Source: Methanothrix sp.
Lineage (GTDB): Archaea; Halobacteriota; Methanosarcinia; Methanotrichales; Methanotrichaceae
Assembly (NCBI GenBank): GCA_037128175.1
Contig: JBAXWY010000018.1
Span: forward strand, 1 to 49,751
Direction of reading: 5' to 3'
Length of the DNA: 49,751 nt
This document shows, piece by piece, positions 6,082 through 49,196 of the stretch (positions are counted from its first letter, which is position 1; every line of letters starts with the position of its first letter). Under the pieces are notes generated by a model. It ran no database searches, had not been told where the DNA came from, and saw only the letters and a list, made by a program, of their open reading frames with translations. A program made the translations under genes and the position numbers.

Positions 6082-6118
6082 CGCTCTTAACCCAGGGCGC
6101 CTCGGATATTAAAAGGCT

Positions 6119-19650: not shown

Positions 19651-20367
19651 CTAAAAGAATCTCGACGCCAGGCTGTGCCTCGTCTCGCAAATCTCCGTGG
19701 CCCAACAGGACGGGCAGGGTGCATCCTCGGGCCGGTCGGGAAGCTGCCCTTCCTTTATCAGCCTTATTCTATCTCGAATGCGCAGCACTCGCGCTCTATC
19801 TACGCCATGAATCTCAGCGGCTCGCACCAGGGCCTGACGCGGATACTCCACCAGTCCTTGATTTATATGCGTCCTGTTCTTTTCTCCCAAGAGCAGGGCA
19901 TAGCCTGCCAGCATCAGCCTGTCCTTTTTCCAGATGCCGTCCTCTGGGGCTTTGCCGGTGCGAATGAGGGAAGGAGTGCTGCCCGGCGCCAGACGGTCCA
20001 GCCGGCCCGAAAGGCCTAACCGATCAGAATAGAGGTCAACCTCAGCCAAGCAGGGAAGCAGATGATCCAGGTGCCCGGCCAGGCCCTGAGCAATACCGGC
20101 AATCTCTCCTTCCAGCTCCCGGCAGGCCGGCTCCATCTCCTCTGGCTCGATCTCATAAACCAAAGGCAGTTCCGCTTCCAACCTGGTCAGGTTCTCTTTT
20201 AGCTGTCCTTCCAGATCGTTTTTTTGGGAAAAAGAGAGCATGAGGCTACGCAAAAGGAGGTGCTTGGTATCGATCTTTTGGGGCGTCCTTCTTAGATTTT
20301 CAAAGTAAATCAGCCGGGGGCAACGCAGATAGAGGCCTATTTCAGAGATCCTGACGAGTGTTGGCAT
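19651..20367 (-). CDS. Stand-alone Cas4/Dna2-like Fe-S PD-(D/E)xK protein (degenerate)
   Basis: N-terminal YLRCPR, C-terminal CPSCxxxxxC, LSGRLDRL; no CRISPR array or other cas genes in the window. Confidence 0.75.
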   Translation of the reverse strand: MPTLVRISEIGLYLRCPRLIYFENLRRTPQKIDTKHLLLRSLMLSFSQKNDLEGQLKENLTRLEAELPLVYEIEPEEMEPACRELEGEIAGIAQGLAGHLDHLLPCLAEVDLYSDRLGLSGRLDRLAPGSTPSLIRTGKAPEDGIWKKDRLMLAGYALLLGEKNRTHINQGLVEYPRQALVRAAEIHGVDRARVLRIRDRIRLIKEGQLPDRPEDAPCPSCWATEICETRHSLASRFF

Positions 20368-20458
20368 CAGTGAATATATGTATCTCATCTTTTAAAAATT
20401 TTTTCTTCCTTAGACTAATTTTGGTTCCTAGCTGTTTCGCGCGGATAATAGAATAATC

Positions 20459-31170: not shown

Positions 31171-31176
31171 ATCCTT

Positions 31177-33396: not shown

Positions 33397-35918
33397 TACT
33401 GACCACTCCAGAGATTCACTATGATATCTGTTTCAGGATTTTCAACGGCTATCAGTTCCTCAGAAGAAATGTAAAGGTGGCTTTGCACGCTGTCCGGAAT
33501 ACCGACGCCGTTTGCTGTGTGAAAGGTAGCCAGCCTTTTCTTTTGCTCAGAATATGAAAGGTCCTTGAATTGAAGCATGATAATGCGTGCCGCGACAACG
33601 CCGGCAACGCACTGGATAGCCAGGTAGAGGTCGCTCAAATGAATTGACTGTCCCAGGTTTAAATTTTCAAACGCCAGATGCTCCTTCAGGGCATTGGTCA
33701 CAGCCGTTTGCACATCTTTATGCAAAAAATCTGAACCCGATTTGATCTCTACCATCATTTGTAAGGGCATTTTCCTGCGAACTTTAACTCTCAATTTTCG
33801 GTTACGGTCTCGACGGACATTTAGATATCCAACCAGTTCTTGAAGGATTGGGTCCATATCTGCATCATCTACACCGGCCACGGTCAGAATGACTGCCTGC
33901 TCTTCGCCGTCCCAGTACGAGTTCGATCTTGCCTTGGCCACGCCTTTGAACTCGCGGGCTGCGTCTTCGAAGTCCCTCAAAGACACTATGCGCTCGAAGG
34001 TGCGCACAGTATTTGGAGCATTTTTCCTGGCATCCTCCAATCCCTCCTGATTATCACCACCTTCGGCAGCAATAGGATTGATTACGCTCTTGAGTCCTAA
34101 AGGACGGTCTAGAAGCGTCTTGAGGGTGTTGGCTTTTACGTTGCCTTCCCGCCCCGATCCCTTACGATATGTGGCGGTTACATTTCCGTTGCCGCTGGAC
34201 AGACGAGCCCCGTTTTGCCCGTCTCCGAACCGGATCTGTGTCTTGCCTTCGCTATTGATTTCGGATGTATAAATCCGCTCATTTCCAAAGTGGCCATAGA
34301 GGTTGTTTGCTTCATGCCACAATATTCCGTCCACCCGGATCAGCAGAGTATTTGCAGCACCATGTGGGGATTTAGCCTGATGGACGAACGTCACCGGTGA
34401 ATTGCTTATCGGAAATGATTGCAGACCAATTGATGCATCCCCATCGCCCAGAACCTCATCTTTAACAGTCTCGCCGTGAGTTGCCTGGGCAACGTTCCCA
34501 TAGATGAAAGCGGTTTTGCTGTCCAGAGGCGGGCTCAGCTCCTCATCGATGGTAATAGACTTGAGGCCATGATTGGCAATGGAACCTACTCCAGTAACCG
34601 TGGCCAATTGGGGCATTCCATTTTCGTCCCCGATTATCAGAGCACGGTTGAGCTCGATTTTTTCGGCCTGATTTGTTGGAAGGTAGAAGGAATTTCCGGC
34701 AATATTATCTGGATAGCAATAGTTGAAGAAAGATATTTTCCCATCAAGCTTATAGATTTCCGCCTCGCGCAAATTAATTTTATCGGTTATTGGTGATTTA
34801 ATGGTAATCTCACTAACTGTTGCACTCATCGGGCCGTAACTCTCAGAAACCTGGCGAACTTCAGTGATAATGGTTACCAAAGCGAAGGACCGGTTCGGGC
34901 AAATCAGAATTTCTGTACCTTTTTTCAGGTCGTCATAGACAGCATCCAGATTTAGTCTCTTAGCATTATCAGGGGGTATTTCGAAGGTATATTCTGGCCG
35001 GCCAATTTCTTCATCAGCCGATTCGCCTTCATTAACCCAAATCCATTTCATTTCACCGTTCTTGTCAGGATAAGAGTGAAGATATCTCTTGGGAGCATTA
35101 TGGCCGAATAGTCTATATTTTTGCACGAACTTGTAAGCATAAGAATTTTCTAAATTCATGTCGGACGATTGAATTTCTGGCTTCCAGACTAAGGCGGTAA
35201 GCCCCCCATATTGCTTGAATCCTATAACCTCTTTATCTTCCGTGGAAAAGATGCCGGAAACTGATTTGGAAAAAATCACAAACTGATCTCCCGGAGATAA
35301 CGCCGCAAAGGCTTTTAGATCTAGATAGCCACTGGTGCCGTTTCCCACAGGATTGCCCTTCTCCAATGGATTGTGACTTTGTGGTTGGGGATAAATCTTC
35401 AATCTGTTAATGTCCGCCCTCGCGGCAATGTCTTGCACAGTCTCGAACTTCTGGGGCTTCTCGCTTTGGCCGGGCACACTCTGGACGCGAATGCCTAACG
35501 GTATCTGAACTTCTTTGTCTTTCTCCAGAGTGAATGCCAGATAGGTCGAAGCGGCAACTCCGGGCACCAGTCTGTAGTCCAGCAATGCGGCCAGCCGTGT
35601 TACAGACTCAGGAAGAAGGGCAGTTCTTAGGTATGCCTCGTTGGCTATCCTCTCCTGGTAGAAAGTCAGAATATCGGCAAGATATGCCCACATCTCGATC
35701 AAGGCGATGCCATAGTCATCGCTTGTACGAACCATCCAACTCTCAAGATCAGGACGTTGGGAGATGGCATGAAACATTGCCTGACGAAAGGCGTCATAAG
35801 TTCCCACCCGGTAGCTCAGGGAGGACATTCCCGGACGGTTCTCTACCACAGCAGGTGTTGCCGGCGTTGGCAACTTACAGCAGCTGCAAGGGCTCTTACC
35901 GGTATCATTACAGCTCAT
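33396..35918 (-). CDS. eCIS baseplate J-like protein (second copy)
   Basis: ADILTFYQERIANEAYLRTA, GNVAQATHGET, IRFGDG and RIVSLRDFED motifs. Confidence 0.88.
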   Translation of the reverse strand: MSCNDTGKSPCSCCKLPTPATPAVVENRPGMSSLSYRVGTYDAFRQAMFHAISQRPDLESWMVRTSDDYGIALIEMWAYLADILTFYQERIANEAYLRTALLPESVTRLAALLDYRLVPGVAASTYLAFTLEKDKEVQIPLGIRVQSVPGQSEKPQKFETVQDIAARADINRLKIYPQPQSHNPLEKGNPVGNGTSGYLDLKAFAALSPGDQFVIFSKSVSGIFSTEDKEVIGFKQYGGLTALVWKPEIQSSDMNLENSYAYKFVQKYRLFGHNAPKRYLHSYPDKNGEMKWIWVNEGESADEEIGRPEYTFEIPPDNAKRLNLDAVYDDLKKGTEILICPNRSFALVTIITEVRQVSESYGPMSATVSEITIKSPITDKINLREAEIYKLDGKISFFNYCYPDNIAGNSFYLPTNQAEKIELNRALIIGDENGMPQLATVTGVGSIANHGLKSITIDEELSPPLDSKTAFIYGNVAQATHGETVKDEVLGDGDASIGLQSFPISNSPVTFVHQAKSPHGAANTLLIRVDGILWHEANNLYGHFGNERIYTSEINSEGKTQIRFGDGQNGARLSSGNGNVTATYRKGSGREGNVKANTLKTLLDRPLGLKSVINPIAAEGGDNQEGLEDARKNAPNTVRTFERIVSLRDFEDAAREFKGVAKARSNSYWDGEEQAVILTVAGVDDADMDPILQELVGYLNVRRDRNRKLRVKVRRKMPLQMMVEIKSGSDFLHKDVQTAVTNALKEHLAFENLNLGQSIHLSDLYLAIQCVAGVVAARIIMLQFKDLSYSEQKKRLATFHTANGVGIPDSVQSHLYISSEELIAVENPETDIIVNLWSGQ

Positions 35919-38380
35919 TTCCCACCCCTCATGACCAATCGCAAAGCACCGTTCTCAGGGAAGTTCAGGTCGTTATCCAGCCGGGCAACCTCCAAACGGC
36001 CCATGGAGATGTAGCCCATCTCTAACTCGTAGTTGGCTATTATGCCGAATTTCTTAAAAACAGTAACATTCGACGATCTTACACCTTCGACAGTGTCGAT
36101 TGCCGCATAGATCTGGCTGAGGAAAAGAGACTGGCCAAAGGTGAAGTTATCAGGATGGAAGAAACCTCGTTGCTCATCGGGGAGAGACATGTTGCTTAGA
36201 GCTGTTATCAATGCCTTCTCCACATCTCCTCTGAAGTGATACGAGTCAACGCAGATTTCTGCCTCTATCTCCAGCGGCACATAGATGGGCCCATTGATCT
36301 TCAGATCGTATCCCGCTTGAGTAAAACGAGAGATCCAATTCTTGACTCTAAGCTTTAGCTCTGGAGTCACGTCGACACCACCGGACGGGTCAACGGTTAC
36401 AAAGACCGTATGCCAGCTACCTGTCCACCGGAAGGTAGCTACGGCCTTTGAAACCTCTGGACACTTTTCAGCAGCGAGGGCATAATCTTCTTCGGTAACT
36501 GCTCTGAGCTGCTCGGCATGAAAAGCTGCAGGAGCTATCTGCTTGACCTTTTCTATGGGCTCCGGGTCCGTGCCGCCATAAGCTGGCAAAGGATTTCGGA
36601 CAGGTTTTACAGTTGAGGAAGCGATATCGATCTTCGGCCATTTGTCCTTAACCTCAGGCTCTACGATATGGACCAGTGATTCAGAGCCCACGTTTCCGGC
36701 CGCGCCTACTCCTACCCTGTAGGAGACATTAATCAGGATCTCATTGCCTCCAGAATCACTTCCAGGCTCATAGTTCGGAGGCGCCATGCCATATTCCCCA
36801 TCACCAAAACGGATCATGGCACGGCCTTCATTATCCGGTTCGACCGCAAAATGCCGATCAAATGGGCCGCTGTTCATCAGATTTGGCTTTGCGGGTTCCC
36901 AGGATTCAGGTATAGAGGTGACTGTGAGCTGCAGTATTTGGGGGCTGGCCAGGTGAGGATCTGTAGCCTGCAGATCTGCGGCAGGGCTATCGCCGTCAGG
37001 TTCCTGCCGAAAACTTAAAGGCCCCTGATTGAGGTGAATGCGGTGAGGAAGAAACTGGCTTGGATACTTTGGCTTCTCTGGCCCCAGGTGACTCTCGCCC
37101 TCAATGCTACGACCGTGATCTGCGATTGCCATATTTCCTCTGGCTACGCTCATATTTTTCATCAGTTTGCCGTCATCACGAACTGAGGAAATACACAGCG
37201 GAAAGGTCAGAGCATCTTTCTTATCCCACTTGACTCTGGTTATTGCCTGGGGCAGTTTTGTGACGGGATCATGGATTGGATCATAAGTGAGCTTTACATC
37301 CGTTAGCCTGACCACCTGCCTGTGGTTTCTGTCTGCATCAGCTGCCAGCCCGGTATCAGGACCCATGACCTCTTCGAAGAGGATCGGGTCGCCTCGATGC
37401 AGGTCTTCGGTTAGATCTCCCAACAGATCCGTATTTGTGGTGCCACGAGGCAGGCAGCACTTCTCGTTGAACCATGTATAGATCGTGATATCATTAAGAT
37501 TATCACTAACTGCAAGATCATAAAGTGTCTCGAATACAACGTCTGCTGCAGCCACTGCCAGATCCTTCATCTCAGCCGGAATAACTGTCCCAGGAGGGCT
37601 GGATTCCCCGCCAAGGGGGACATCGATTCTAGTGAGGACCTGTGTTCCTTTTGGAATTTTGCCCTTTGATGTCACACGGAAATGAACAAATGTCCGGGCG
37701 CTGACTCCGTCATGCATGCAGTAATCGATGAGACCGGCATGCCTTCTAACGGAGACACGCTGTCGAGCCGTCTCAAGATACGCCTCGTTGGCCACAGCAT
37801 CCTGATAGTAGCTGAGCTGGTCACCGGCATAGGCCAGAAGCTCCAGGAGAGTTATACCCAGGTCTGCCTCGTGCCTTTCCTTCCAATCGGGCACGAGAGT
37901 AGGTATCAGATCAAGCAGAGCCTGGCGGAAGCTGGCATAATCCTTGGCCATGTAGTCTATGTTAGGCCTGGGTCCGGTTTTGGCAGGACAATCCTGTCGA
38001 GGCTTGCAGTCGAACCGGCTGGGGCAACCGGCCTTGAAACTGAAGTCGCACTGAGAATAGACCGGGTCCAGAAGATGGCTATCGATGACAAGCGAATAAT
38101 TGGAGAAATCCCCCGCCCGGTCCACCTCTACTTTCAGATGACCGTCAATCTCTTTCTTGACGCCAAGAACCTTAATGTCACGAATACGAACTCCGCCAAC
38201 AATACGCAAAGCCCCTGGATTTTCCTCTAGATGAAGAGCCGAAGGGTCCTTGAGAAAATATACATGGATAAATCGTTGAGCATCCAGGCTATCCGAAGAC
38301 ACTTCGATGAAATCGATCCCGTTAATATCCAGGGATCGTCGCCGCTCTTTGTTGCAGAATAGGTCTTTGTAAACCGCCAT
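35915..38380 (-). CDS. eCIS baseplate J-like protein (first copy)
   Basis: IDYMAKDYASFRQ, LSYYQDAVANEAYLETA, IRFGDG and RAVTEEDY motifs. Confidence 0.88.
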   Translation of the reverse strand: MAVYKDLFCNKERRRSLDINGIDFIEVSSDSLDAQRFIHVYFLKDPSALHLEENPGALRIVGGVRIRDIKVLGVKKEIDGHLKVEVDRAGDFSNYSLVIDSHLLDPVYSQCDFSFKAGCPSRFDCKPRQDCPAKTGPRPNIDYMAKDYASFRQALLDLIPTLVPDWKERHEADLGITLLELLAYAGDQLSYYQDAVANEAYLETARQRVSVRRHAGLIDYCMHDGVSARTFVHFRVTSKGKIPKGTQVLTRIDVPLGGESSPPGTVIPAEMKDLAVAAADVVFETLYDLAVSDNLNDITIYTWFNEKCCLPRGTTNTDLLGDLTEDLHRGDPILFEEVMGPDTGLAADADRNHRQVVRLTDVKLTYDPIHDPVTKLPQAITRVKWDKKDALTFPLCISSVRDDGKLMKNMSVARGNMAIADHGRSIEGESHLGPEKPKYPSQFLPHRIHLNQGPLSFRQEPDGDSPAADLQATDPHLASPQILQLTVTSIPESWEPAKPNLMNSGPFDRHFAVEPDNEGRAMIRFGDGEYGMAPPNYEPGSDSGGNEILINVSYRVGVGAAGNVGSESLVHIVEPEVKDKWPKIDIASSTVKPVRNPLPAYGGTDPEPIEKVKQIAPAAFHAEQLRAVTEEDYALAAEKCPEVSKAVATFRWTGSWHTVFVTVDPSGGVDVTPELKLRVKNWISRFTQAGYDLKINGPIYVPLEIEAEICVDSYHFRGDVEKALITALSNMSLPDEQRGFFHPDNFTFGQSLFLSQIYAAIDTVEGVRSSNVTVFKKFGIIANYELEMGYISMGRLEVARLDNDLNFPENGALRLVMRGGK

Positions 38381-38389
38381 ACTTTTCCC

Positions 38390-38764
38390 CTATTTTCCAA
38401 ACGCAGGTAAACTGAAACTATCCTTCATTTTCTGACCATTGTCTAGTCTAGTGTAGACCACTTCCACTGCCAGGCGCTCTTCCTGATTTGATATCTCTAC
38501 CTTCTCCACCTCTATCACATCTGAGAGCCAATGCTGCAGCGAACCCTGCACCAGGAATTGAGTGGCCGTGGCGAGAAGGTCGCTGTTGGGCATGAAGACC
38601 ATTTGCAGAAGGCCGCATCCGAAGTCCGGTCGGTTCACACGCTCTCCGGAACTGGTGAATAGAACCTGGTAGATCATGTCCCGGATGTGGTCGTCGGCAT
38701 CGGTTGTGGCTGCCTTACCTTTCACATCAACGCGAAAGGGAAAATCGAGATTAGATGATGACAT
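38390..38764 (-). CDS. GPW/gp25 family baseplate protein
   Basis: FPFR and VLFTSSGERVNRPDFGCGL motifs. Confidence 0.92.
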   Translation of the reverse strand: MSSSNLDFPFRVDVKGKAATTDADDHIRDMIYQVLFTSSGERVNRPDFGCGLLQMVFMPNSDLLATATQFLVQGSLQHWLSDVIEVEKVEISNQEERLAVEVVYTRLDNGQKMKDSFSLPAFGK

Positions 38765-38768
38765 GAGT

Positions 38769-39107
38769 TTACTCACTTTTGTCCATATCAATATTTAGAT
38801 TGACGTTGGCGGAAATTTCAGTCACTTGATTAGTTATAGGATCTTTAAAATTAAATGTAATCTTAATCAAGTTTTGATTATCTCTAAGATATCTGAGGAC
38901 ACCACGTGATATGGCCATGAACAGAAGACTGCGATCTTCTTTTCCCATATCGGAAAAAGGCGATGCTTTAACCTTTTCGAATACATATTTCATCTCTTCT
39001 TCGATAGCCAGGGCCATGCTTTCATCCATGGCTACGTTGTCGTCCAGACGAAATTTGCCCGGTTCATATTCATATGGTTTTCCTGGGTAAAGGTAAAGAT
39101 TCGTCAT
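38769..39107 (-). CDS. Hypothetical eCIS protein between spike and gp25
   Basis: 112-aa ORF with GGAGG RBS, tightly packed in the operon; no PAAR motif. Confidence 0.7.
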   Translation of the reverse strand: MTNLYLYPGKPYEYEPGKFRLDDNVAMDESMALAIEEEMKYVFEKVKASPFSDMGKEDRSLLFMAISRGVLRYLRDNQNLIKITFNFKDPITNQVTEISANVNLNIDMDKSE

Positions 39108-39120
39108 TCAATCCTCCAAA

Positions 39121-39789
39121 TTATCCCGTCCTGACTTTCATGGAGAGAAGTTCGGGCGTAGCAGGCGGCATGGGAGGCACCGGCGGCGCAGGAGTAACCG
39201 GAAAAACTCCCAGAGCCATCTCTCCAGGGTGCATATGAGTTTGGTAAATTATCACCATCTGGTTAAGATACCGTAAAAGCTGGTCGCCGAACACCAGAGG
39301 ATGGACGGCGTTTTCCACCAGCTCTATCTGAGGGGCATGCATCACCACTTTGAAGCCGGCCTTGATCTTGATCAGCTTCTCTTGCGCTTTTATTGTTATG
39401 ATGTTACTTCCATCCCCATCGCTCAAAGTGATCGTCTGGCCGGCGTCGTCCAGGTAGACCATCAATCCCTTTTCGCTGCGAAGGATCTTGATCTCGGGCG
39501 TGGTATCAGATTGTTTTTCATCTCGTGGCAACTGATTCTCGCCCCACCAGCAGCCGCTCCAGATGGGCCTGGAAACGTCGCCTGCCTCGAACTCTATCCA
39601 GACGCCAGCACCAGGCGGCGGAACTGTGAAGATGCCTGACCCGTTTCCGGCATAAGTAGCACATGGAAGCGCAAATCCTGATTCCAGGTCTCCTAACACT
39701 TCAGGGACCCTGGCCTTGATGCGCCCCAGATTTTGAGGATCATTGTTATCGGTGACAATGCCCCGGTATTTCCCGTAGAATGGCGGCAT
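39121..39789 (-). CDS. Baseplate assembly protein V / gp5 OB-fold spike
   Basis: FYGKYRGIV..N.DP..LGRI, VWIEFEAGD..RPIW.G; C-terminal HMH and Pro-rich tail. Confidence 0.88.
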   Translation of the reverse strand: MPPFYGKYRGIVTDNNDPQNLGRIKARVPEVLGDLESGFALPCATYAGNGSGIFTVPPPGAGVWIEFEAGDVSRPIWSGCWWGENQLPRDEKQSDTTPEIKILRSEKGLMVYLDDAGQTITLSDGDGSNIITIKAQEKLIKIKAGFKVVMHAPQIELVENAVHPLVFGDQLLRYLNQMVIIYQTHMHPGEMALGVFPVTPAPPVPPMPPATPELLSMKVRTG

Positions 39790-39845
39790 GCGAATTTCTT
39801 GTCTCCCTTGTCAATTGAAATAGTCGAAAGTGTTTCCCGAATAGA

Positions 39846-40982
39846 TCAGAGCCGAATTTGGGCATCCTCAGAGAAGTCTTCCCTTTTTGTCAGGCCCAGG
39901 GCATTTCGTCGCAGGGCGAAGCGCTGGACATATCCTTGTCCCTCTCCGGCAAAGACGTGCAGCACCTTTTCCACGTAATAGAGGCCGCTGAATTGTTTTC
40001 CTGCCCCTCTGACCAGGACCGGGCTCTTGGCGCGAAGAATTCCGCCGTAGGCAGCGGTGTTCAGCTCCCCCTCGGCGGTGATGGCCCAGGAGGACTCATC
40101 GACCACAGCCTGGGCATAGGTCTGAAGCTCGCCTGTACCTGCCAGACCCGTGCCGCTGAGAAGGACACGGCGCGGCCGGTCGCTCATGGCGGCAGGGCTT
40201 TTGCCCAGGTCTTTCAATGATGCCCCTTCGGCCATGGCCGGCTGGTCGGATTGGCTCTCAATCTCCAGGCCGGTGGCCTTTGCGATGACGGGCTTTAGCA
40301 TATCATATCTTGCCTTGAAGGAGTTGATGTTCGTCGCTTCGCCCATGTTTACAGTAAGAACACCTTGCGGCCGCTCATCTACTTTTGGCTTGTGGAAGTG
40401 GCCTGTAGCCCTGGCTGATCCGCCCGACAGGCTGGTCTCCACGTAGCATTCGTAGCCGTTTCGTTTTGCCAGCATTTGGAGAAACTGGATGTCGGTTCCA
40501 CGCTGAATGGTCTTGGTCTGGATCTCCTGATGCGAGATCGAAGTCGTCTCCACCTCTGCCTCAAAACCGTACTCGCTGAAGAGGGCCGAGGCGATGTCGC
40601 TGTCTGCCATGTCCGGCCAGGCTCTGACCTGCTCGTCCAGGTTCATGAGCACGGTGGGGTCCATGGCCACCACTTTCAGTACTGAGTTACCGGGATTATT
40701 GGAGAACTCGACATGGGCATCGATGACGTAGGAACTGATGAGCGTCATGGCCTGGCCTTTATCGAGGAATACCTCGACAGTGATGTTAGTCAGGCGGCGG
40801 AAGACGTCCTCGTCGAGGATGGTCCATTTCTCGCCGTTCTCGTGGATGGCTACAGACATCTGCAGCCGCAGCATATCCGCCATGCGGGCATGGTCCTCCA
40901 CCTCCAGCTGCTGGACGGCTGCCAGCAACTCTGTCGAGAGCGGCTTTCCATCGATCAGCAACCGGTAGGATATGCCAGCCAA
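39846..40982 (-). CDS. Phage late control D / gp27-like hub (VgrG N-terminal half)
   Basis: QRGTDIQFLQMLAKRNGY and G.G..FSGLYYV.KV.H motifs. Confidence 0.85.
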   Translation of the reverse strand: MAGISYRLLIDGKPLSTELLAAVQQLEVEDHARMADMLRLQMSVAIHENGEKWTILDEDVFRRLTNITVEVFLDKGQAMTLISSYVIDAHVEFSNNPGNSVLKVVAMDPTVLMNLDEQVRAWPDMADSDIASALFSEYGFEAEVETTSISHQEIQTKTIQRGTDIQFLQMLAKRNGYECYVETSLSGGSARATGHFHKPKVDERPQGVLTVNMGEATNINSFKARYDMLKPVIAKATGLEIESQSDQPAMAEGASLKDLGKSPAAMSDRPRRVLLSGTGLAGTGELQTYAQAVVDESSWAITAEGELNTAAYGGILRAKSPVLVRGAGKQFSGLYYVEKVLHVFAGEGQGYVQRFALRRNALGLTKREDFSEDAQIRL

Positions 40983-40988
40983 GGCTTT

Positions 40989-41270
40989 TCAGTCCTCTGA
41001 AGGCGGGATTAGGATCTTCTTTCCGGGATCTTTCACCAGGTTTTGGGGCCAGAGGTCCAAGTTGGCATCGCAGATGCGCCAGAACCGCTCCGGATCACGG
41101 AAATATCGATAAGCCAGGTTATCCAGCCGGTCCCCCTGGATTACAGTGTGAGACCTGTCCGCCGGAGTGTCAGCGATGAAGCGTACTTTCTTGTAGAGGA
41201 CCTCACGGCCTTCGCTGTCCTTGATTATATTGGATTCAACACGCTCGTAGCGACTTCCTTTGAAAAACAT
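40989..41270 (-). CDS. LysM domain baseplate protein
   Basis: MFFKGSRY...HTVIQGDRLDNLAYRYFRDPERFWRICDAN; start placed at ATG 41270. Confidence 0.88.
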   Translation of the reverse strand: MFFKGSRYERVESNIIKDSEGREVLYKKVRFIADTPADRSHTVIQGDRLDNLAYRYFRDPERFWRICDANLDLWPQNLVKDPGKKILIPPSED

Positions 41271-41341
41271 AATAGGCACCACTTCTAAGAGAAAATAACC
41301 GCAGCCTAAATCCATCATGAACCCAGGTCTCAACTCTGGCC

Positions 41342-41974
41342 TCACGGGTACTTCTTGGCCAGCCCCTCCTTCAAAGTCTGGTAGGTGATGAAGGTGTCTC
41401 TGGCCAGGCAGGGCTGGGGATATTCCATGAAGGTCAGCACCTTCATCCCCAGCTCCACCTTGGCCCGGATGGGGTTGAGCATCTGGTCGAACATCTCCTC
41501 GGTGACCGAGAAGCTGGTGAGCTGGATGGGGACGACGCGTGACATGCCCAGGAGGAGCAGGGTTGTGGGCAGCTCGTAAGAATTTATCTGAGATTTATTC
41601 TGCTTGGCCAGGTTGGCAATCTGCGTCTCCGCAGATACAGGAGGATACATAAGCAGCTCCAGTGCGGCGAGAGCCGGCTGGATACCGCTCTCCATTGCTC
41701 TGGGATTGGCATCTGGCTCGGCGAGCTGATCGGTTGCGTCCAGGATCACAGTCATGTTGATGGTCTCCACTGGAGGGCCTGCAACCTTCATCACATCCTC
41801 CTTGGCTCCGCCTGAGCTGCCCTGTTTTGCAGGCGGGGCGCGGGAGGCCAGCGTGCGCTTGAGCTGCTCCGGGTTATACTGGAAGGGTATCAGCCTGGTT
41901 GGCTGAGACTGGGCGTCATAGGTTGCAATCCCGCCTTTAATCATGGCGGGCCGGCCGGGGAAATCGGATGGCAT
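41342..41974 (-). CDS. CIS tube-initiator-like protein (Afp7/Pvc7 N-terminal type)
   Basis: FQYNPEQL.R and SFSVTEE.FD..LNPIRAKV.L motifs; start ATG 41974 or 41995. Confidence 0.8.
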   Translation of the reverse strand: MPSDFPGRPAMIKGGIATYDAQSQPTRLIPFQYNPEQLKRTLASRAPPAKQGSSGGAKEDVMKVAGPPVETINMTVILDATDQLAEPDANPRAMESGIQPALAALELLMYPPVSAETQIANLAKQNKSQINSYELPTTLLLLGMSRVVPIQLTSFSVTEEMFDQMLNPIRAKVELGMKVLTFMEYPQPCLARDTFITYQTLKEGLAKKYP

Positions 41975-41995
41975 GATTATTTCTACCATTTCCAT

Positions 41996-42125: not shown

Positions 42126-45100
42126 CTATTTTTTTGGAGGTAGTGATATTGGTGGCAAAACAGGTGAGTTAGGAAGCGGATTTGGCGCCATTTTCTTTAA
42201 GGATTCTATATATCGATCAATACATTCGTAATGAAATCTATATGCATTTGAATATTCAAAGGGCGCAATATTTTTATCAGGAATTTTTAATACCGTTTGG
42301 AAATCATACGGGCGCCAATTACCTAAATCATCAATAAGACCTTGAATATCCCCTTGAATAAAATGTCCTTCTTTCCATAACTCGTCTGCATATCTTCGGA
42401 TATCCATAATTGTTTTTTTGTTTATCCTTAAGGCATTCTTAGCGGTCAAGGCTTCCGCTCTAATAATTTGCTCGGCGGTTAATAATGCATCATCAAGTTC
42501 TTGGACACTACCTCCTTCTAGCTTTTCCATAGCAAAAGCTTTTCTTCCAGGTCCAACATCGACTTCGCCGTAAAACTTCGGCCCGACGCTTGTTTTACTA
42601 GCTGCCTCAGCTCCTTCAACCTCACGATAGAAAAGATCCAATAAATTCCTATCGTCAGCAGGGTATACTTTGATTACAACTGGTTCCTTGACGCCAGGAA
42701 TATTACCTTCATAAGCACCAAATCCTTTCCCTTTTTGGGCCAATGTACCTGCATGCTCAAGACCAGACAAAGGCCTTTCGGGATTAATTTTAAAGTTCTT
42801 ATATCCTTCAACAAATTGCTCTTCGGGTAACACTCCATCTAAACCAGAATTTATGAATACATTTCTGGCTATATCTTCCGTTTCGCCTGTCTGTTCCACG
42901 GCGCGAATCGCTTGTGCTGCCCTCACAAAAGAAGCGGCTGCAAGGACGATATCAGTCACCGACATCACGATCATAAGTGCCAGCCAGAATAGGCTCGGAT
43001 CCTGTTGCGAAATTGCCTTTGCCTTATCAAAAGTGTTACCCGTAGCTGCCTTTTGGATCTCGTAGTCCCGAATTCCCTCCAAAATACTGAGCCCACCAGT
43101 GCCAGCAAGTAGGCCAGCACCGAAGCTCCCAGCAAATGTCGCAACACTGCTTCCACCGCTAGGAATAGCAGCTAAGAGCGCACCAATGAGGCTAGCAAAG
43201 CCTAGTGTTAGCCTTCTTAACATCTCGCTATCTGCAACATCTTGTACCTTAGTGTCAACCACCTTATCCTCAACAGAACCAGGCTTAACTCCTAATTCTC
43301 TTTTGGCTCCGCTGATAATCGATCCTTGCTTCCAAATAAATTTATCATCATCTGCGACCCCGTATATTTCTTCTATGTTCCTGAGTTTCTGATCCATATC
43401 CACGCCAACTACTTGGCTCCTAGCTTCCTTGGATCCCTCGGCGATTACTTTAAGCTGATTAAGGCCTTCAGGAGGCCTAAATGAAGCCAAAATCGGATGC
43501 TGTGCTTCATGTCGTGTCTGCAGCACCACATATTCCTGTTGGGTCTTTTCAATATCCTCAGTGACCTGTTTATGGGCGGCTGGGTCTTTGATATGCACTA
43601 AGTTTTCATTGCACCTGAGTCGCATACCGCTTTCCTCGACATCAGTGCATGCGCTAGTCTTCTCTTCAAAACTCTCGCGCTTATTATTCAGATTCGTTAA
43701 ATCATTATATTTATTAATAATATCATTAGCAGCAGTTACCATATCTCCAGTATCTTTATTCCCATTTAAGCTATAAGTTGTAGAGGAAATGGTTATTCCG
43801 CCACCATATACCATATGGCTTGACCTTGTGATCTTCTGGCTTAGACCATATTTCTCCGCCTCTTTTTCAACAACTTTCTTGCTATCCGCCAAGACTGTTT
43901 TCAGGTAGTCAATCGCCTTAGGTCTGAATTTGCTTTTAATATATTCTTTGGCATAATTTTCTAAGCTTTCCAATAATCTGTTAAGAATAGGTATTATCCG
44001 TCCTCGCAGCCTAAACTGCTCAGGGGACCAACCATCATTGAATCTATAAGACATAATGAAATTTGAAGCCCCTCTAAAGCCATCCTTTCCAATAACTTTT
44101 TTAAGCACTGTTTCAAGCACTTGTTCATCGGGGGACATTGCAAATCCCCCATAATACTCGGTATCGCCTTCAATCCTTGTTTGGACGGTAGCTCTAGCTG
44201 CGGGGTATTCTCTAGGGTCCCATCTGCCACCATCTACACGTTGAACCACCGATTTGCGTCCATAAAGCATGCTTTCTTGCTGTATGACGTGTGTAAGTTC
44301 ATGAGCCAATAGTTGTCGCCCTTCTTTTGTATCAGGAGCATACCACTGATTTCCAAAGACGATGTTATTCCCAAATGCAAATGCTTTCGCATTCACCTTC
44401 CTCGCCGCCTCTGCCGCCTCTGAACCCACATACACCTTGACACCACTGAAATCATGCTTAAAGCGTGGCTCAAAGAAAGCACGTGAAGCACTGTCAAGAG
44501 GCTGTTCTGATCGAAGATTACTAATAAGGCGATCAGTTACTGATTCGCTTGCTCGATTGGATCTAGTTCTGCGCTGCAAAAGCCTTTTCTCTTCATCTTT
44601 TGGGCATACGGCACATTTTTGCTTAAATTTATATTCTACTATCTGCTCAGCTATCCTATCTGCCTTTCTATCCTCAGAACTGCTTTGGATAATGGTACTG
44701 TGTCCAGAAAGTAATTTGGTTTGCAGATGCTTCTCTTCTTCCTTTTTTAACTCATCCTCTTCGAAAGTGCCTCTCTCTCTCTGGATCAGGAGAGTACTCT
44801 GGCCTGGAAGCAGTTTAGCTTGAATGTGCTTTTCCTCATCTTCTTTTTTCTCTTCTTTTGCCTCAGCATCTGTTTCTCTTTGGATCAGTAATTCACTTTG
44901 GCCAGAAATAAATTTGGTTTGAAGAAGCTTCTTCTCATAATCGTCCTTTTTATCTGTATCTTCTCGATTCTCTGACAGCACTAAAGATGCTGTTTGAATC
45001 GAGATCGGTTTAATCTGAAGGCGTTTTTCTTCATCGTCCTTTTCCTTCTCTGATGCTAACCCTTGGGCCTCAGGATCGGGCATCCGCATTACTGCATCCG

Positions 45101-45353
45101 CAACCTGATCCGCTTCCTTCTCGTACTCATCATCAGGAGGATTAACGACGAGCTTGGCCTGGATTTGCTTTGACTGGAGAATGCCCTGAACTAACTGATT
45201 GCCAAAAGCTTGCTGCTGCGCCAGTATCGAATTTGGCGAGTACTCAGCCAAGACTAGCTTACTCTCACTCGTTGCTGGCCTGATTAGACGGCTTTCATGC
45301 GCTTTATTTTGATGCATTACATGATCAGGCATTTTATCACAATTCCCAGGCAT
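42126..45353 (-). CDS. DUF4157 (eCIS core domain) protein with hydrophobic segment and C-terminal kinase-like domain; candidate effector
   Basis: IQAKL.V..P.D.YE.EAD, FFEPRF..DFSGV, A.AFAFGNNIVF and LLAHELTHVIQQ; C-terminal VVIKVY / REVE / AMEKLEG / QGD / YDF. Confidence 0.85.
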   Translation of the reverse strand: MPGNCDKMPDHVMHQNKAHESRLIRPATSESKLVLAEYSPNSILAQQQAFGNQLVQGILQSKQIQAKLVVNPPDDEYEKEADQVADAVMRMPDPEAQGLASEKEKDDEEKRLQIKPISIQTASLVLSENREDTDKKDDYEKKLLQTKFISGQSELLIQRETDAEAKEEKKEDEEKHIQAKLLPGQSTLLIQRERGTFEEDELKKEEEKHLQTKLLSGHSTIIQSSSEDRKADRIAEQIVEYKFKQKCAVCPKDEEKRLLQRRTRSNRASESVTDRLISNLRSEQPLDSASRAFFEPRFKHDFSGVKVYVGSEAAEAARKVNAKAFAFGNNIVFGNQWYAPDTKEGRQLLAHELTHVIQQESMLYGRKSVVQRVDGGRWDPREYPAARATVQTRIEGDTEYYGGFAMSPDEQVLETVLKKVIGKDGFRGASNFIMSYRFNDGWSPEQFRLRGRIIPILNRLLESLENYAKEYIKSKFRPKAIDYLKTVLADSKKVVEKEAEKYGLSQKITRSSHMVYGGGITISSTTYSLNGNKDTGDMVTAANDIINKYNDLTNLNNKRESFEEKTSACTDVEESGMRLRCNENLVHIKDPAAHKQVTEDIEKTQQEYVVLQTRHEAQHPILASFRPPEGLNQLKVIAEGSKEARSQVVGVDMDQKLRNIEEIYGVADDDKFIWKQGSIISGAKRELGVKPGSVEDKVVDTKVQDVADSEMLRRLTLGFASLIGALLAAIPSGGSSVATFAGSFGAGLLAGTGGLSILEGIRDYEIQKAATGNTFDKAKAISQQDPSLFWLALMIVMSVTDIVLAAASFVRAAQAIRAVEQTGETEDIARNVFINSGLDGVLPEEQFVEGYKNFKINPERPLSGLEHAGTLAQKGKGFGAYEGNIPGVKEPVVIKVYPADDRNLLDLFYREVEGAEAASKTSVGPKFYGEVDVGPGRKAFAMEKLEGGSVQELDDALLTAEQIIRAEALTAKNALRINKKTIMDIRRYADELWKEGHFIQGDIQGLIDDLGNWRPYDFQTVLKIPDKNIAPFEYSNAYRFHYECIDRYIESLKKMAPNPLPNSPVLPPISLPPKK

Positions 45354-45481: not shown

Positions 45482-45751
45482 TCATCTTCGACCTCCGAGC
45501 GCGCTATGCACGCTCTTAGCCACCCTTCCCGCGATCTGCCCCTCGCTCCCTAGATCGGATGCCTTCACGGCAGGTATGGATATTCGGGAAACCGCCCCCG
45601 CAGTCATGCCCTCGGCCTGCCCTCCCTCAGCCAGAACCCTTTGTAGCTCTAGTCCAATCGACGAGCGCAGGCTATCAGCCCTACCGGGATCGATATCCAA
45701 TCCGCTGAGCACGATCCTGTCGATGTGCACGTTCAGAACGGTCTTGCTCAA
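45482..45751 (-). CDS. Small eCIS-associated protein
   Basis: LNVHIDRIVLSG...GRVAKSV pattern; overlaps the ATPase stop codon. Confidence 0.7.
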   Translation of the reverse strand: MSKTVLNVHIDRIVLSGLDIDPGRADSLRSSIGLELQRVLAEGGQAEGMTAGAVSRISIPAVKASDLGSEGQIAGRVAKSVHSALGGRR

Positions 45752-47994
45752 GTTCTCACCTTTGCATAGTATTTGCCGAACTCCGATTCTGTGATCATCT
45801 TGTTGATCTTCGAGTACTCCCTCCGGGCTGCAGGCACGACGTGGCTCATGCCAATGGGCGAACTTTCAGAAGCTGCCAGAAAGGCGGCATTCAGAGCGAT
45901 ATTCCTGATATTGCCGCCGGAGATCTCCATCCTGGCCAGGAGGTCATACTCCATTTCGTCCACGCTTGCCTCTTCAGGAAAGACCTTCTGCCAGATCATC
46001 TTGCGGTTGCGGATATCGGGGAATGGCAGATCCACCAGGAAGCGCAGGCGGCGCAGGAAGGCCTGGTCCAGAGCCGACTTCTTGTTGGTGGCCAGGATCG
46101 CCAGCCCCCGGTAGTCCTCCATGCGCTGCAGCAAATAGTTGACCTCAATATTGGCATACCTGTCGTGGCTGTCCTTGACCTCTGAGCGCTTGCCAAAAAG
46201 GGCATCCGCCTCGTCAAAGAAGAGGATGGCCCCGCTCTCCTCGGCAGCGTCGAATACCTTGCGAAGGTTCTTCTCTGTCTCGCCGATGTACTTGCTCACC
46301 ACTCCTGCCAGGTCGACCCGGTAGAGATCGAGCTTCAGGTGGTTGGCCAGAACCTCGGCAGCCATGGTCTTTCCCGTGCCGCTCGGACCTGAGAAGAGTG
46401 CGTTGATGCCTTTACCCTTAGAAAGCTTCTTGCCAAAGCCCCACTCCTCGTAGACCTTCTGCCTTCCCGCCACCTGGGCGGCGATCTCCTTCAATTGCTT
46501 CAAAGCATCTTCAGGCAGGACTATATCATCCCAGGTGGCCACAGGAACCACCCTTTGAGCCAGCTCGCCCATCTCCTGTCCTGCCAGCTCCCGGCAGGCC
46601 TGCCAGATGTTGCCCATATCGGGGGCAGAATTTTTTCCTGCCGATAGCCTCGCTTTGTCTTTCGCATACCGTGCCGCCAGTGCAATCTCCTCCGAGCCGA
46701 ACTCGAACTGCTGCACCACCGCTTGCAGATACTCGCCTGAGATGCCACTTGAGTCCGATTCTGATTTTGATTCAAATTCAGATTCGCGTGGCTCTGATAG
46801 GGCATCCTTCCATAAAGCGTATCTTGCGCCGGCATCCGGCTTTGGCACCTGTGCACAGATCATTCCTTCATCAGAATGCCGCCGATCTCTGCTCCCCAGG
46901 ATGAAGAAGGCTCCCAGACGCTCTATTATCTCCTCGACGAACGTTGCTGCCTCATTGCCGGGCACATCATCCTCATTTGCATCAATAAAAAAAGCCGCCT
47001 GGAAGAGAACCGCATCCCGCTCCATGAGTCGATAGATCTCCTGTCGCTCTGGACCTGCGGGCGGAAGCCTCCTCCAGTTGAAGGCAAAGAGCTGTAGCCC
47101 CAGGCGCTCGCATAACGCACAGGCCACGGCCTTCCTGCCCGCGCCCTTGCGACCGAAGAGATTCAAAGACAGCCTTCTCCTCGGACCATTCTCTTGATCC
47201 CTATTTATCTCCGACAAAATCCAATGCTGCAGAAGATCGACCAGCTCTCTTTGGGGCGAGGAAAGCGGGGCAGATGTGACCGGTTTAACCAAACCGGCAA
47301 TCTTCTCGTCCATTCTCCCCTCACCTAAAAGGTAGTCAGCGATGCTCTCCTCCAGCCTTAGCGGCCTATCGCCCAACGGCAGAGCAGGCAGATGACCGGG
47401 CTCCAGGACCAGCAATCTGGATCGGCGGAGTGCTGCCTCGGGCATGAGACTTAACCTGGCATTGGCCAGATACTGGCCCCGCCCTCCAAACAGGGACAGA
47501 GCCAGATGAGGTGTCGGATACTTGCGATTCACATCGTCCTGAATATAAGCGTAAATCCTGACGAAGGCCGAATCCAGCTCGGGAGCCAGGCAGAGCAGCA
47601 GCACATCTCTTTCAAAGGAGTTCAGACCGAAGAGCTGGGCAAGCACATCCAGAGGGGCCTGAAATCCAACCTTTGCGATCGCATCTCTACGAACATCATT
47701 CTCAGCTTGCGCCTCCGTCAGCAAATTACTTATGTGCGCCGCCTCTTGGTCTCCTTTATAGAACTGCTTCTCAGCTTTTAGGTCTTCGCCCGCCATCAGC
47801 CAGTCGGCCTTGACGTCACTGATCACCATTCCCTGATAGCTCTGCAAAGGATCGTTCTTCCACTGCCGGCGGAGCCATAATGCTTTCAGCTGCACAAGCA
47901 GTCGCAACCGTCTGATCTCACTCTTGAGATAAGCCTGGTTCAATTCGCTTCTCTTGGCTGCCAAATCGTTCGGCTTTCCATCAGAAGACATCAT
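45748..47994 (-). CDS. eCIS AAA+ ATPase (Afp15/Pvc15-like)
   Basis: GPSGTGKT, VVSKYIGETEKNL, LFFDEADALFGKRSEVKDSHDRYAN and YLLQRME; N-terminal LAPELD...Y.QDD motif. Confidence 0.93.
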   Translation of the reverse strand: MMSSDGKPNDLAAKRSELNQAYLKSEIRRLRLLVQLKALWLRRQWKNDPLQSYQGMVISDVKADWLMAGEDLKAEKQFYKGDQEAAHISNLLTEAQAENDVRRDAIAKVGFQAPLDVLAQLFGLNSFERDVLLLCLAPELDSAFVRIYAYIQDDVNRKYPTPHLALSLFGGRGQYLANARLSLMPEAALRRSRLLVLEPGHLPALPLGDRPLRLEESIADYLLGEGRMDEKIAGLVKPVTSAPLSSPQRELVDLLQHWILSEINRDQENGPRRRLSLNLFGRKGAGRKAVACALCERLGLQLFAFNWRRLPPAGPERQEIYRLMERDAVLFQAAFFIDANEDDVPGNEAATFVEEIIERLGAFFILGSRDRRHSDEGMICAQVPKPDAGARYALWKDALSEPRESEFESKSESDSSGISGEYLQAVVQQFEFGSEEIALAARYAKDKARLSAGKNSAPDMGNIWQACRELAGQEMGELAQRVVPVATWDDIVLPEDALKQLKEIAAQVAGRQKVYEEWGFGKKLSKGKGINALFSGPSGTGKTMAAEVLANHLKLDLYRVDLAGVVSKYIGETEKNLRKVFDAAEESGAILFFDEADALFGKRSEVKDSHDRYANIEVNYLLQRMEDYRGLAILATNKKSALDQAFLRRLRFLVDLPFPDIRNRKMIWQKVFPEEASVDEMEYDLLARMEISGGNIRNIALNAAFLAASESSPIGMSHVVPAARREYSKINKMITESEFGKYYAKVRT

Positions 47995-47996
47995 GG

Positions 47997-49196
47997 CTAT
48001 TGAACTAAAAGCATTTTTTCTTCGACATTCTCAACACCGTTTACCCTCACTCTCAGTGGGTAAGATCCGGTTTTCAGTTTATCACTATCAAATATATTGA
48101 AGCTAACAGTGCAAGAGGTTTGATTGACATGATTCGATTCAGGTATTTCCGTGTCTCCAACCAACGTCATGCAGCTCGCCTGAGGATTGTAAATCCTTGA
48201 CCCTGTAATTGTGTACATGGCCCCTTGAACCGCAACATTGTTGATCTTCGGCACCAGCATAAAGACTGCCTGGTTGGAATGGCTCAGGGTATGCTTGACA
48301 CCAGGATCTCCCATAATAACGTCGAATGCGAGGCTGATGGTCTGGGGGCCCGGTTGAAGAGCCTCATTATCAGGCAGCAAAAATTCTATCCGGCTGTCTC
48401 CTTTGATTGCCAGTATACTGTCTGTGACATCAACGCTTCCCAGTATTAATCTGTTATCGCTTGCGAAGTTGCGCCCAAGGATAATCAAGGTGTCACCGAT
48501 GGCTGCATAAGAAATCAATCGTTCTTTCGATTCGCCTTTTCGAACCATGTGAACCTCATCGATCTGGGGGCGGCGAATTGGCAAAGCATAGACCTTTGCA
48601 CCACCTTGGGGGCCGACTCCGACCAGCTTAGGCAGGCTTCTAGGTTTGCTTTTCTCAATCTGTACCACGCTGACGGTATAGGCAGCAGATGTTCTGTAAG
48701 GCTTGGTAATTGCTGTCCATACCTTTGTTAGGTCTTCCAGGCCTAAAGGATCAAGGGAAATCCTCAGATTCTCAAAGGGATTCTGCAGGCTTAGGTCCTC
48801 ATTGTTCTCATCCAAATTCTTGATATCCTCTTCTGATATTATTGGATGGTCATGAAATACCCTCATGGCCTCTCCTAGGATCTTGTGAGCATCCAGCTCA
48901 TCAATTTCTCCTTCTTCGCCTCCCCCCTTGCTGCCATAGGCTGTTAAGAAGTAATGCAGATCCAGGGAAAGAGGGGGATGACCATAGCGGCCGGAGCTTC
49001 CCATACCCTGAATCTCTTGATTTTTTAGATAAGCATTTTCGGATACTTTATATAAAAATATATTCACACGTTGTTTTGATTCATTAGATATACTAATAGG
49101 CGAAGATACGGTAACATCAATCTTAGGGTCCATTTCTTTTTGCAGAAGGTTTCTAAGAGTAGAGCTTGCTACGAAGATCGCTGTAGAATTGCTCAT
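47997..49196 (-). CDS. DUF4255 / Pvc16-like cap (tail terminator) protein with C-terminal IPT/TIG-like domains
   Basis: MSNSTAI, NIFLYKV.EN, PPLSLDLHYFLTAY and YRTSAAY.VSVVQI motifs. Confidence 0.88.
   Translation of the reverse strand: MSNSTAIFVASSTLRNLLQKEMDPKIDVTVSSPISISNESKQRVNIFLYKVSENAYLKNQEIQGMGSSGRYGHPPLSLDLHYFLTAYGSKGGGEEGEIDELDAHKILGEAMRVFHDHPIISEEDIKNLDENNEDLSLQNPFENLRISLDPLGLEDLTKVWTAITKPYRTSAAYTVSVVQIEKSKPRSLPKLVGVGPQGGAKVYALPIRRPQIDEVHMVRKGESKERLISYAAIGDTLIILGRNFASDNRLILGSVDVTDSILAIKGDSRIEFLLPDNEALQPGPQTISLAFDVIMGDPGVKHTLSHSNQAVFMLVPKINNVAVQGAMYTITGSRIYNPQASCMTLVGDTEIPESNHVNQTSCTVSFNIFDSDKLKTGSYPLRVRVNGVENVEEKMLLVQ

Follow-up and report, generated by a model that had tools for sequence, protein, structure and literature searches.

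The stretch of DNA analysed here (49,751 nucleotides of contig JBAXWY010000018.1 from the Methanothrix sp. assembly GCA_037128175.1; in the following the window) carries on its reverse strand a co-oriented operon of genes for a contractile injection system. Inside this operon, between the gene of an AAA+ ATPase and the genes for tube and baseplate proteins, lies an open reading frame (ORF) of 1075 amino acids (aa), the product of which is referred to as the cargo protein. From its N- to its C-terminus it consists of a short N-terminal motif, five repeats, a zincin-like DUF4157 domain (eCIS_core; eCIS, extracellular contractile injection system), a helical and hydrophobic middle module and a terminal domain which, judged by its motifs and a structural model, is a protein kinase fold (Table 1). 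The whole genome (2.96 Mb) contains one match to DUF4157 and one match to the kinase domain, and both fall into this protein. As the genome contains a single DUF4157 protein and a single sheath gene, the cargo protein is its only recognisable cargo. Both features by which cargo of an injection system is recognised, a DUF4157 domain in the protein and a position of the gene within the operon, are present.

Table 1. Features of the cargo protein and of the injection-system operon in the window. Residue numbers refer to the cargo protein, and row counts to the 103-row alignment described in the text.
Feature	Residues	Window position	Strand	Basis
Minimal protein-kinase-like domain	856–1057	42183..42788	-	extents of BLAST matches against 124 relatives
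Gly-rich loop QKGKGFGAY (G875-x-G877-x-G879)	873–881	42711..42737	-	G879 in 101/101, G877 in 69/99 rows
VVIKVY with predicted ATP-phosphate-binding beta3 Lys895	892–897	42669..42671 (Lys895)	-	K in 96/102 rows, T in 6
REVE with predicted alphaC Glu911	910–913	42621..42623 (Glu911)	-	E 69, D 28 (103 rows)
GPKFYG	924–929		-	motif string found in ORF; G929 in 101/103 rows
Hinge AFAMEKLEG	939–947		-	motif string found in ORF; M942 in 99/103, G947 in 103/103 rows
Catalytic-loop string GHFIQGDIQGLID	996–1008	42330..42368	-	motif string found in ORF
Asp1002-Ile-Gln1004, shortened catalytic loop	1002–1004	42342..42350	-	position 1002: D 40, E 56 (together 96/103 rows); Q1004 in 98/103
YDFQ	1016–1019	42297..42308	-	motif string found in ORF
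Asp1017 of YDFQ, predicted DFG-type metal-binding Asp	1017	42303..42305	-	D 97, N 5 (102 rows)
His1041, near-invariant, in last long helix	1041	42231..42233	-	H in 96/101 rows
Cargo gene, 1075-aa ORF	1–1075	42126..45353	-	ORF calling; Pfam eCIS_core
N-terminal motif QQQAFGNQLVQGIL, candidate loading signal	46–59	45177..45218	-	family consensus QRxxGNxAVQRLL
Five EEK[RH]LQxK...LLIQRE-like copies, spacing about 33 aa	108–265	44559..45032	-	regular-expression matches at aa 108, 139, 173, 206 and 254
DUF4157/eCIS_core (PF13699) zincin-like domain	285–361	44271..44501	-	Pfam E 2.7e-28; whole-genome search E 1.7e-29
HELTH of the DUF4157 domain	351–355	44289..44303	-	within eCIS_core match
Two hydrophobic segments around DKAKAISQQDPSLFW motif	712–745 (glycine-zipper-like), 786–813	42915..43220	-	hydropathy
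AAA+ ATPase (Cis15/Pvc15-like) with winged-helix domain, immediately upstream of cargo gene		45748..47994	-	Pfam WHD 2.3e-36, AAA 1.7e-29
Pvc16 N-terminal-domain protein, upstream		47997..49196	-	Pfam PF14065 1.6e-40
Downstream injection-system genes, whole run		26866..41995	-	Pfam
Tube-like protein		41342..41995	-	CIS_tube match barely above curated cut-off
LysM-like protein		40989..41345	-	LysM and Tail_X matches merely E 0.01–0.03
GPD hub		39846..40982	-	Phage_GPD match below curated cut-off
Spike OB-domain protein		39121..39789	-	Pfam
gp25		38390..38791	-	Pfam
Two large baseplate proteins (with a Baseplate_J match)		33396..38380	-	Pfam
739-aa protein		between baseplate and fibre-like genes of downstream run	-
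DUF6519/beta-helix fibre-like protein, 1434 aa		26866..31170	-	Pfam

Fold and conserved residues of the terminal domain

An earlier reading of the bare sequence (hereafter the first-pass annotation) had placed an atypical kinase-like domain with seven motifs at positions 42190–42760. All seven motifs are present in the order given there, between aa 873 and 1019, and the location proved right, with the extents of the BLAST matches being slightly wider (42183–42788). Conservation was assessed in a 103-row alignment, made up of the query and 102 segments from homologues. As the motif positions are the most conserved columns of this alignment, the kinase-motif pattern of the domain is, judged from sequence conservation, not a product of chance. 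Further conserved columns are T981 (98/103), G996 (99/103) and G1011 (102/102). The family consensus of the catalytic loop, G[DE]xQG, is found in 83 of the 103 rows and the DFG-type context [IVMY]D[FLIV]x in 94. Of the 103 rows, 88 retain a complete set of six residues (Lys895, Glu or Asp911, Asp or Glu1002, Gln1004, Asp1017 and His1041), and the window copy holds all six. All six rows which carry Thr in place of Lys895 are also without an acid at position 1002, and five of them exhibit Asn at position 1017. Such a joint loss at 895, 1002 and 1017 is what would be expected of functionally linked residues. Depending on whether Asp or Glu stands at position 1002, two subfamilies can be told apart, in which the neighbouring residues vary in concert (Y[VAC][KRH]GDLQG and YY[SD]GEVQG, respectively).

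The fold was predicted with AlphaFold2 for aa 850–1075, using an alignment of 57 homologues and the window domain (58 rows). The resulting model reached a predicted local distance difference test score (pLDDT) of 93.4 and a predicted template modelling score of 0.87, with 192 of 226 residues at a pLDDT of at least 90 and the five models ranging from 91 to 93. A model from the single sequence was useless (pLDDT 39.1) and was replaced by the alignment-based one. When the latter was compared with the PDB by Foldseek, at least 500 structures matched at E ≤ 1e-3. Those listed are all kinase or pseudokinase domains, and the best of them is found in CurKC, a class III lanthipeptide synthetase (kinase domain; E 9e-7; TMq 0.43–0.55). 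The first-pass annotation had named a structure other than a kinase fold as the result that would speak against its proposal; the fold returned by Foldseek is that of a kinase.

This is in agreement with VIA-align, for which all matches listed are likewise kinase or pseudokinase domains. Its four best rows are RNase L (13.4 over 176 residues), Archaeoglobus fulgidus Rio2 (13.2 over 169), Rad53 (13.1 over 187) and A. fulgidus Rio1 (12.8 over 169). The initial comparison with small RIO-, Bud32- and Kdo-like kinases is thus borne out with respect to the RIO proteins, whereas neither Bud32 nor Kdo is among the 50 matches listed. The effector kinases OspG (11.8; 162 of 169 residues), NleH1 (11.6; 155 of 160 residues) and HopBF1 (10.7; 166 of 176 residues) are covered nearly end to end by the model. 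According to the model, aa 856–1057 are therefore a protein kinase fold, for which no single kinase clade emerges as the parent.

In the model, a short N-terminal extension is followed by a strand which starts at G879, directly after the Gly-rich G875-x-G877-x-G879. A strand at aa 892–898 with Lys895 and a helix at aa 902–919 with Glu911 correspond to the elements expected of a protein-kinase-like (PKL) fold, and the strands at aa 927–931 and 937–943 run into the hinge. Two helices follow, the second of which (aa 979–994) ends at G996, and then three very short strands around G1001-D1002-I-Q1004-G, W-R-P and Y-D1017-F-Q. A single long final helix (aa 1031–1055) carries His1041. The predicted secondary structure includes neither an activation segment nor any further C-lobe helices that would form a substrate-docking lobe. 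Of the hallmarks of PKL proteins, the two-lobed fold (a beta-stranded N-lobe with alphaC and a helical C-lobe), the beta3 Lys, the alphaC Glu and the DFG-type Asp are all found.

The family and its carriers

A HMMER search of 1.84 billion representative proteins yielded 112 relatives at E ≤ 1e-3 (clusters at 50% identity), 83 of them at E ≤ 1e-10. Going by these sequence searches, the domain is a member of a family which has no name in the libraries searched (Pfam and NCBIfam) and which is otherwise bacterial. The DUF4157/eCIS_core domain was found on 14 of 22 length-matched relatives and on 17 of 33 long representatives, and furthermore on 6 of 14 rescanned proteins and in 4 of 58 rows among shorter, often fragmentary relatives. 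Together with the genome loci described below, this is well in line with the effector family that the first-pass annotation had suggested, for which we infer injection, toxicity and catalysis. The same annotation had proposed a search for the domain on other toxin carriers, and this search was successful: the domain also occurs with DUF922, with SH3_3 and DUF6861, with a pre-toxin TG domain and with WXG100_2 and SecA-like domains. RHS, PAAR and LXG were found on none of the scanned carriers. Its position relative to DUF4157 varies, as it lies behind this domain in the window protein and in front of it in P0004 and P0010. One relative of 4996 aa (P0103) contains two tandem copies (aa 1475–1685 and 1832–1988). 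In another one of 2198 aa (P0117), WXG100_2 and SecA-like domains precede the kinase domain, a hint of another export route.

Other parts of the cargo protein are shared with relatives as well. Of 126 family proteins, 32 bear a motif similar to QRxxGNxAVQRLL (mean after shuffling of the sequences 2.5, maximum 6). It is located almost without exception in the first 80 residues, and some of the proteins bearing it are without DUF4157; this N-terminal motif may be a loading signal. The repeats between this motif and DUF4157 are rich in both acidic and basic residues. For the N-terminal 284 aa and the middle module (aa 370–855) no Pfam family was found, the sole trace being a holin-like hint at E 0.095. 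The stretch from about aa 409 to 1074, which includes the hydrophobic segments and the motif DKAKAISQxDPSLFW, is common to a subset of the relatives, and the module of two hydrophobic segments also precedes the kinase domain in P0004–P0012, P0024 and P0026. As a speculation, this module might help the kinase domain across a membrane.

A scan of contigs from named genomes, using a profile from a 7-row alignment, located the domain at 13 loci: four in Anaerolineales, two in Dehalococcoidia, three fragments and four singletons (one each in Vicinamibacterales, Bacteroidota, unclassified Actinomycetota and Mycobacteriales). The family is thereby spread over Chloroflexota (chiefly), Acidobacteriota, Bacteroidota, Actinomycetota and one archaeon. 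At six of the ten substantial genome loci the carrier contains eCIS_core, and at four of the ten a gene for an AAA, Pvc16_N or sheath protein is adjacent; the loci at which DUF4157 proteins with the kinase domain lie near such genes belong to Anaerolineales and Bacteroidota. In the metagenome-assembled genome from Vicinamibacterales, the match to the kinase domain (locus L008, positions 6001–6576) contains one in-frame stop, with the carrier ORF ending at 6432; this copy may be a broken gene or an assembly error.

Predicted activity and alternative explanations

In view of the fold, the conserved residues and the carriers, we consider the chances slightly better than even that the terminal domain is an ATP-dependent phosphotransferase which is delivered as cargo. 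In this case the cargo protein would be loaded into the particle via its N-terminal motif and the DUF4157 part and ejected into another cell, in which the kinase domain would bind Mg-ATP and phosphorylate a target (most likely a protein). It would do so without an activation loop or ordinary substrate-docking helices, as is the case for RIO proteins, OspG/NleH and HopBF1.

The catalytic loop deserves particular attention. It had been described initially as shortened and devoid of the usual Asn, which is confirmed by the family: the canonical string [HY]xDxxxxN, and with it the Asn that is counted among the PKL hallmarks, is present in merely 3 of 103 rows. In a weak hhalign alignment between the family and 24 archaeal Rio1 sequences (E 0.032, probability 1.6%), position 1002 pairs with the catalytic Asp of Rio1 and Asp1017 with the Asp of the Rio1 motif IDMGQ, and a gap of three residues falls over the Rio1 Asn. 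Based on its position and conservation, Gln1004 probably takes the metal-binding role of the absent Asn. A precedent is offered by the alpha-kinases, in which a Gln two residues after the catalytic Asp (Asp-x-Gln) binds metal. This precedent is partly backed by passages of a study on an alpha-kinase, which give Asp1765 as the catalytic residue and place Gln1767 at the active site, with a metal role of this Gln not being stated in them (PMC2831825).

Several observations weigh against a delivered phosphotransferase. The family lacks the Asn by which the catalytic loop binds metal, the alternation of Asp and Glu at the catalytic acid 1002 is unusual for an active kinase, and the top structural match, RNase L, is a pseudokinase. 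By sequence, the domain was matched neither by Pfam (E ≤ 10; there is no Pfam model for the family) nor by NCBIfam, a Pfam scan of the 58 rows gave a sole weak match to ABC1 (E 0.0077), and the family profile yielded among PDB sequences only insignificant matches to N-lobes (fructosamine-3-kinase, E 0.56; TkArkI, 0.92; Raf, 1–2), while the alignment to Rio1 did not exceed the low probability given above. At four of the ten genome loci the carrier is without eCIS_core and no injection-system genes were seen within 6 kb. Finally, no downstream immunity-like ORF is conserved between loci, neither among seven loci nor among the ORFs of at least 100 aa in ten loci, so that the gene neighbourhood offers no separate indication that the domain is toxic to the producer's relatives. 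Spectrin, the best match of the PDB-profile search (E 2.5e-4; two stretches of 37 columns on the alphaE helix), was rejected as a chance helix motif, as no spectrin is among the fold matches listed.

The first of these points would also fit a nucleotide-binding pseudokinase or a slow ATPase, which would bind and hold its target or act as a switch without phosphorylating it. RIO proteins, which together with RNase L are among the best VIA-align rows, work mainly as ATPases. However, the whole phosphotransfer set is kept in the large majority of rows and is lost jointly in the six-row subclade, which argues for a chemistry beyond binding, and Gln1004 is retained almost throughout. A pseudokinase or ATPase appears unlikely. 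The kinase fold could also serve another chemistry. SelO and SidJ are kinase-fold enzymes which transfer AMP or another nucleotide-derived group, and aminoglycoside, choline and fructosamine kinases phosphorylate small molecules; a transfer of such groups, or a phosphorylation of small molecules or lipids, would agree with the unusual active-site loop and with the lack of an activation loop and a substrate-docking lobe. The sole hint from sequence is the N-lobe of fructosamine-3-kinase mentioned above (VVVKV...E...A..TG...AFAME), the E-value of which is insignificant, and we regard such a chemistry as rather unlikely.

A further explanation concerns the delivery, as the domain might act inside the producer, for example as a regulator of lysis or of the way in which the injection system is assembled, loaded or fired. 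The location of the gene in the middle of the operon and next to the AAA+ ATPase, the lack of an immunity gene and the four loci without visible injection-system genes would be compatible with this idea. Yet, the domain is just one of many ends that are exchanged between DUF4157 carriers: in the archaeal family of the host, 39 of 104 other genomes encode DUF4157 proteins and none of the 104 encodes the kinase domain. As it also stands before or after DUF4157 and on carriers of the DUF922, SH3 and WXG100 types, its distribution follows the pattern of swappable cargo and not that of a core regulator. In addition, five DUF4157 proteins are secreted in a sheath-dependent manner in the archaeon Halogeometricum borinquense (PMC11566945). 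An internal regulator is quite improbable.

Kinases as cargo are not a new concept, and kinase effectors of type III and type IV secretion systems are well known (PMC9950578); it is the unusual catalytic loop and the archaeal host which set the cargo domain apart. The closest proposal is the "Tox-Peptide Kinase", predicted on PVC-metallopeptidase proteins with export by systems of the Photorhabdus virulence cassette (PVC) type (Zhang et al., 2012, PMC3482391). Both share a kinase-fold domain, predicted to be a toxin, on PVC-metallopeptidase (DUF4157/eCIS_core) carriers in PVC-type loci without an adjacent immunity gene, and the best Foldseek match of our model is the kinase domain of a lanthipeptide synthetase. 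The signature published for the Tox-Peptide Kinase comprises DxH, YKP[KR], DxHxEN and DxE. As DxHxEN and YKP[KR] are each absent from all 103 rows, the family is not filed under this name. Moreover, the Tox-Peptide Kinase was reported from Firmicutes only, whereas the family described here occurs in four other bacterial phyla and one archaeon. The same study remarks that PVC-type toxins usually come without immunity genes and are probably aimed at distant organisms (PMC3482391), and the absence of a conserved downstream ORF fits this remark.

The RIO kinases (Rio1 and Rio2; PDB 1zp9, 1tqi) differ from the cargo domain in several respects. The RIO1 model (PF01163) did not match the domain at E ≤ 10 or any of the 58 rows at E ≤ 1, with the genome's own Rio1 (8e-60) and Rio2 (1e-45) serving as positive controls. 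When hhalign was used with single sequences, Rio1 and the Bud32-like protein of this genome scored E-values of 0.45 and 0.7, respectively, neither of which is significant, and a phmmer search with the domain against PDB sequences found no kinase. The catalytic loop of the family is three residues shorter than that of RIO kinases and without Asn, and the domain sits on a cargo protein, whereas RIO kinases act in ribosome biogenesis. The organism also has a Rio1 and a Rio2 of its own. OspG, NleH1 and HopBF1 (PDB 4q5h, 4lrj, 6pwd), in turn, belong to type III secretion in animal and plant pathogens and have another catalytic-loop motif; no sequence similarity to them was detected by phmmer or by the family profile against PDB sequences.

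With respect to its layout, the cargo protein resembles the eCIS-associated toxins (EATs) with DUF4157, which consist of this domain, a long linker and a toxin-type end, are encoded in or next to the operon and often lack an immunity gene (Geller 2021, PMC8213781; Danov 2024, PMC11297309). According to these papers, EATs include ADP-ribosyltransferases, nucleases, deaminases, peptidases and others, and several DUF4157 toxins have been shown to be toxic. No kinase-fold EAT is named in their main passages, to which this comparison refers; their supplements may list such proteins. Likewise, a literature search on kinase domains in contractile injection systems and polymorphic toxins, which covered papers without the eCIS toxin supplements, returned no paper describing the cargo domain. 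Of 1130 predicted DUF4157 toxins, 983 were reported to be without any other annotated domain (PMC11297309). For one recurrent end domain from this "dark" fraction (112 clusters), the present analysis now provides a fold and a predicted active site that can be tested, and the kinases gain a clade in which the catalytic loop is unusual. A concrete candidate is named as well for the payload of a methanogen injection system, on which almost nothing is known. Injection systems of the same kind are being engineered for protein delivery, and the domain, if active, would be a compact kinase of about 200 aa.

The operon, its host and the origin of the cargo gene

Another contig of the genome, C35 (24873–29203), encodes a sheath protein (767 aa), a gp19-type tube protein, a T4_baseplate-like protein and a 199-aa ORF, a run of genes which extends to the contig end. 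With these genes the 5′ portion that the operon lacks in the window has probably been located, and the operon would then be complete but split by the assembly. The fibre-like protein at the downstream end combines DUF6519 and NosD/beta-helix repeats with a mobile domain of PEP-utilising enzymes (E 5e-14), an odd combination for a tail fibre.

The first-pass annotation had spoken of an archaeal eCIS. The archaeal host is supported, as the genome (98 contigs, 99.8% complete) encodes ordinary Rio1 and Rio2 and a Bud32-like protein, and the window itself encodes DUF555, an XPD-like helicase and a DRG-type GTPase, the 90% cluster of which includes a member labelled Methanothrix sp. by its source; no small-subunit rRNA was found in the assembly. 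The term extracellular, in contrast, is not established for this system, because a haloarchaeal system of the same kind works as a cell-bound type VI secretion system (PMC11566945). The DNA runs listed for the sequence are metagenomes from lake water, freshwater and sediment; no RNA run is listed.

The cargo gene itself is probably of foreign origin. Apart from its absence from the 104 other genomes of the archaeal family, a search of 400 further genomes sampled from the phylum did not yield the kinase domain either. Within the genus, DUF4157 proteins are present in 26 of 58 genomes, often several per genome. Many genomes of the archaeal family (e.g., G075:C6, G015:C77 and G037) contain arrays of 3–10 DUF4157 genes with frames of about 230–1330 aa, which suggests large and varied cargo repertoires. 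The nearest named relatives of the window domain are from Anaerolineales (41–46% identity), and its only close relative is a metagenomic protein (P0003; 89% identity over the C-terminal region, 83% over the full length). In a tree of 12 rows, which has a midpoint root only and long branches, the window domain and P0003 group with the four sequences from Anaerolineales (support 88/94). The GC content of the cargo gene is 43.1% and that of the kinase domain 39.6%, with a GC fraction at third codon positions (GC3) of 0.287, compared to a window mean of 0.503 and values of 0.555–0.58 (GC3 0.66–0.74) for the flanking ATPase, tube and hub genes. As the domain is absent from the related archaeal genomes searched, is affiliated with Anaerolineales and deviates in GC and GC3, the cargo gene or module probably entered by horizontal transfer, whereas the Methanothrix-type injection system around it would be native.

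These data also allow for a more far-reaching scenario, which we put forward tentatively and would not yet bet on. The domain may be the first injected archaeal kinase: a lake-dwelling Methanothrix-type methanogen would have captured a member of an undescribed kinase clade from Chloroflexota-like bacteria as the sole cargo of its injection system, and this kinase, with a shortened [D/E]-x-Q loop in which Gln replaces Asn, would phosphorylate a conserved component of neighbouring bacteria or grazing protists. The clade would then be a widespread and overlooked toxin type of environmental injection systems.

Elsewhere in the window, the forward strand encodes a protein of 1138 aa (16101–19517) with a CHAT protease-like domain, a STAND-type NTPase and tetratricopeptide repeats, followed by a Cas4-like ORF (19651–20388). 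Based on its domains, the former looks like a protein of the defence or cell-death type.

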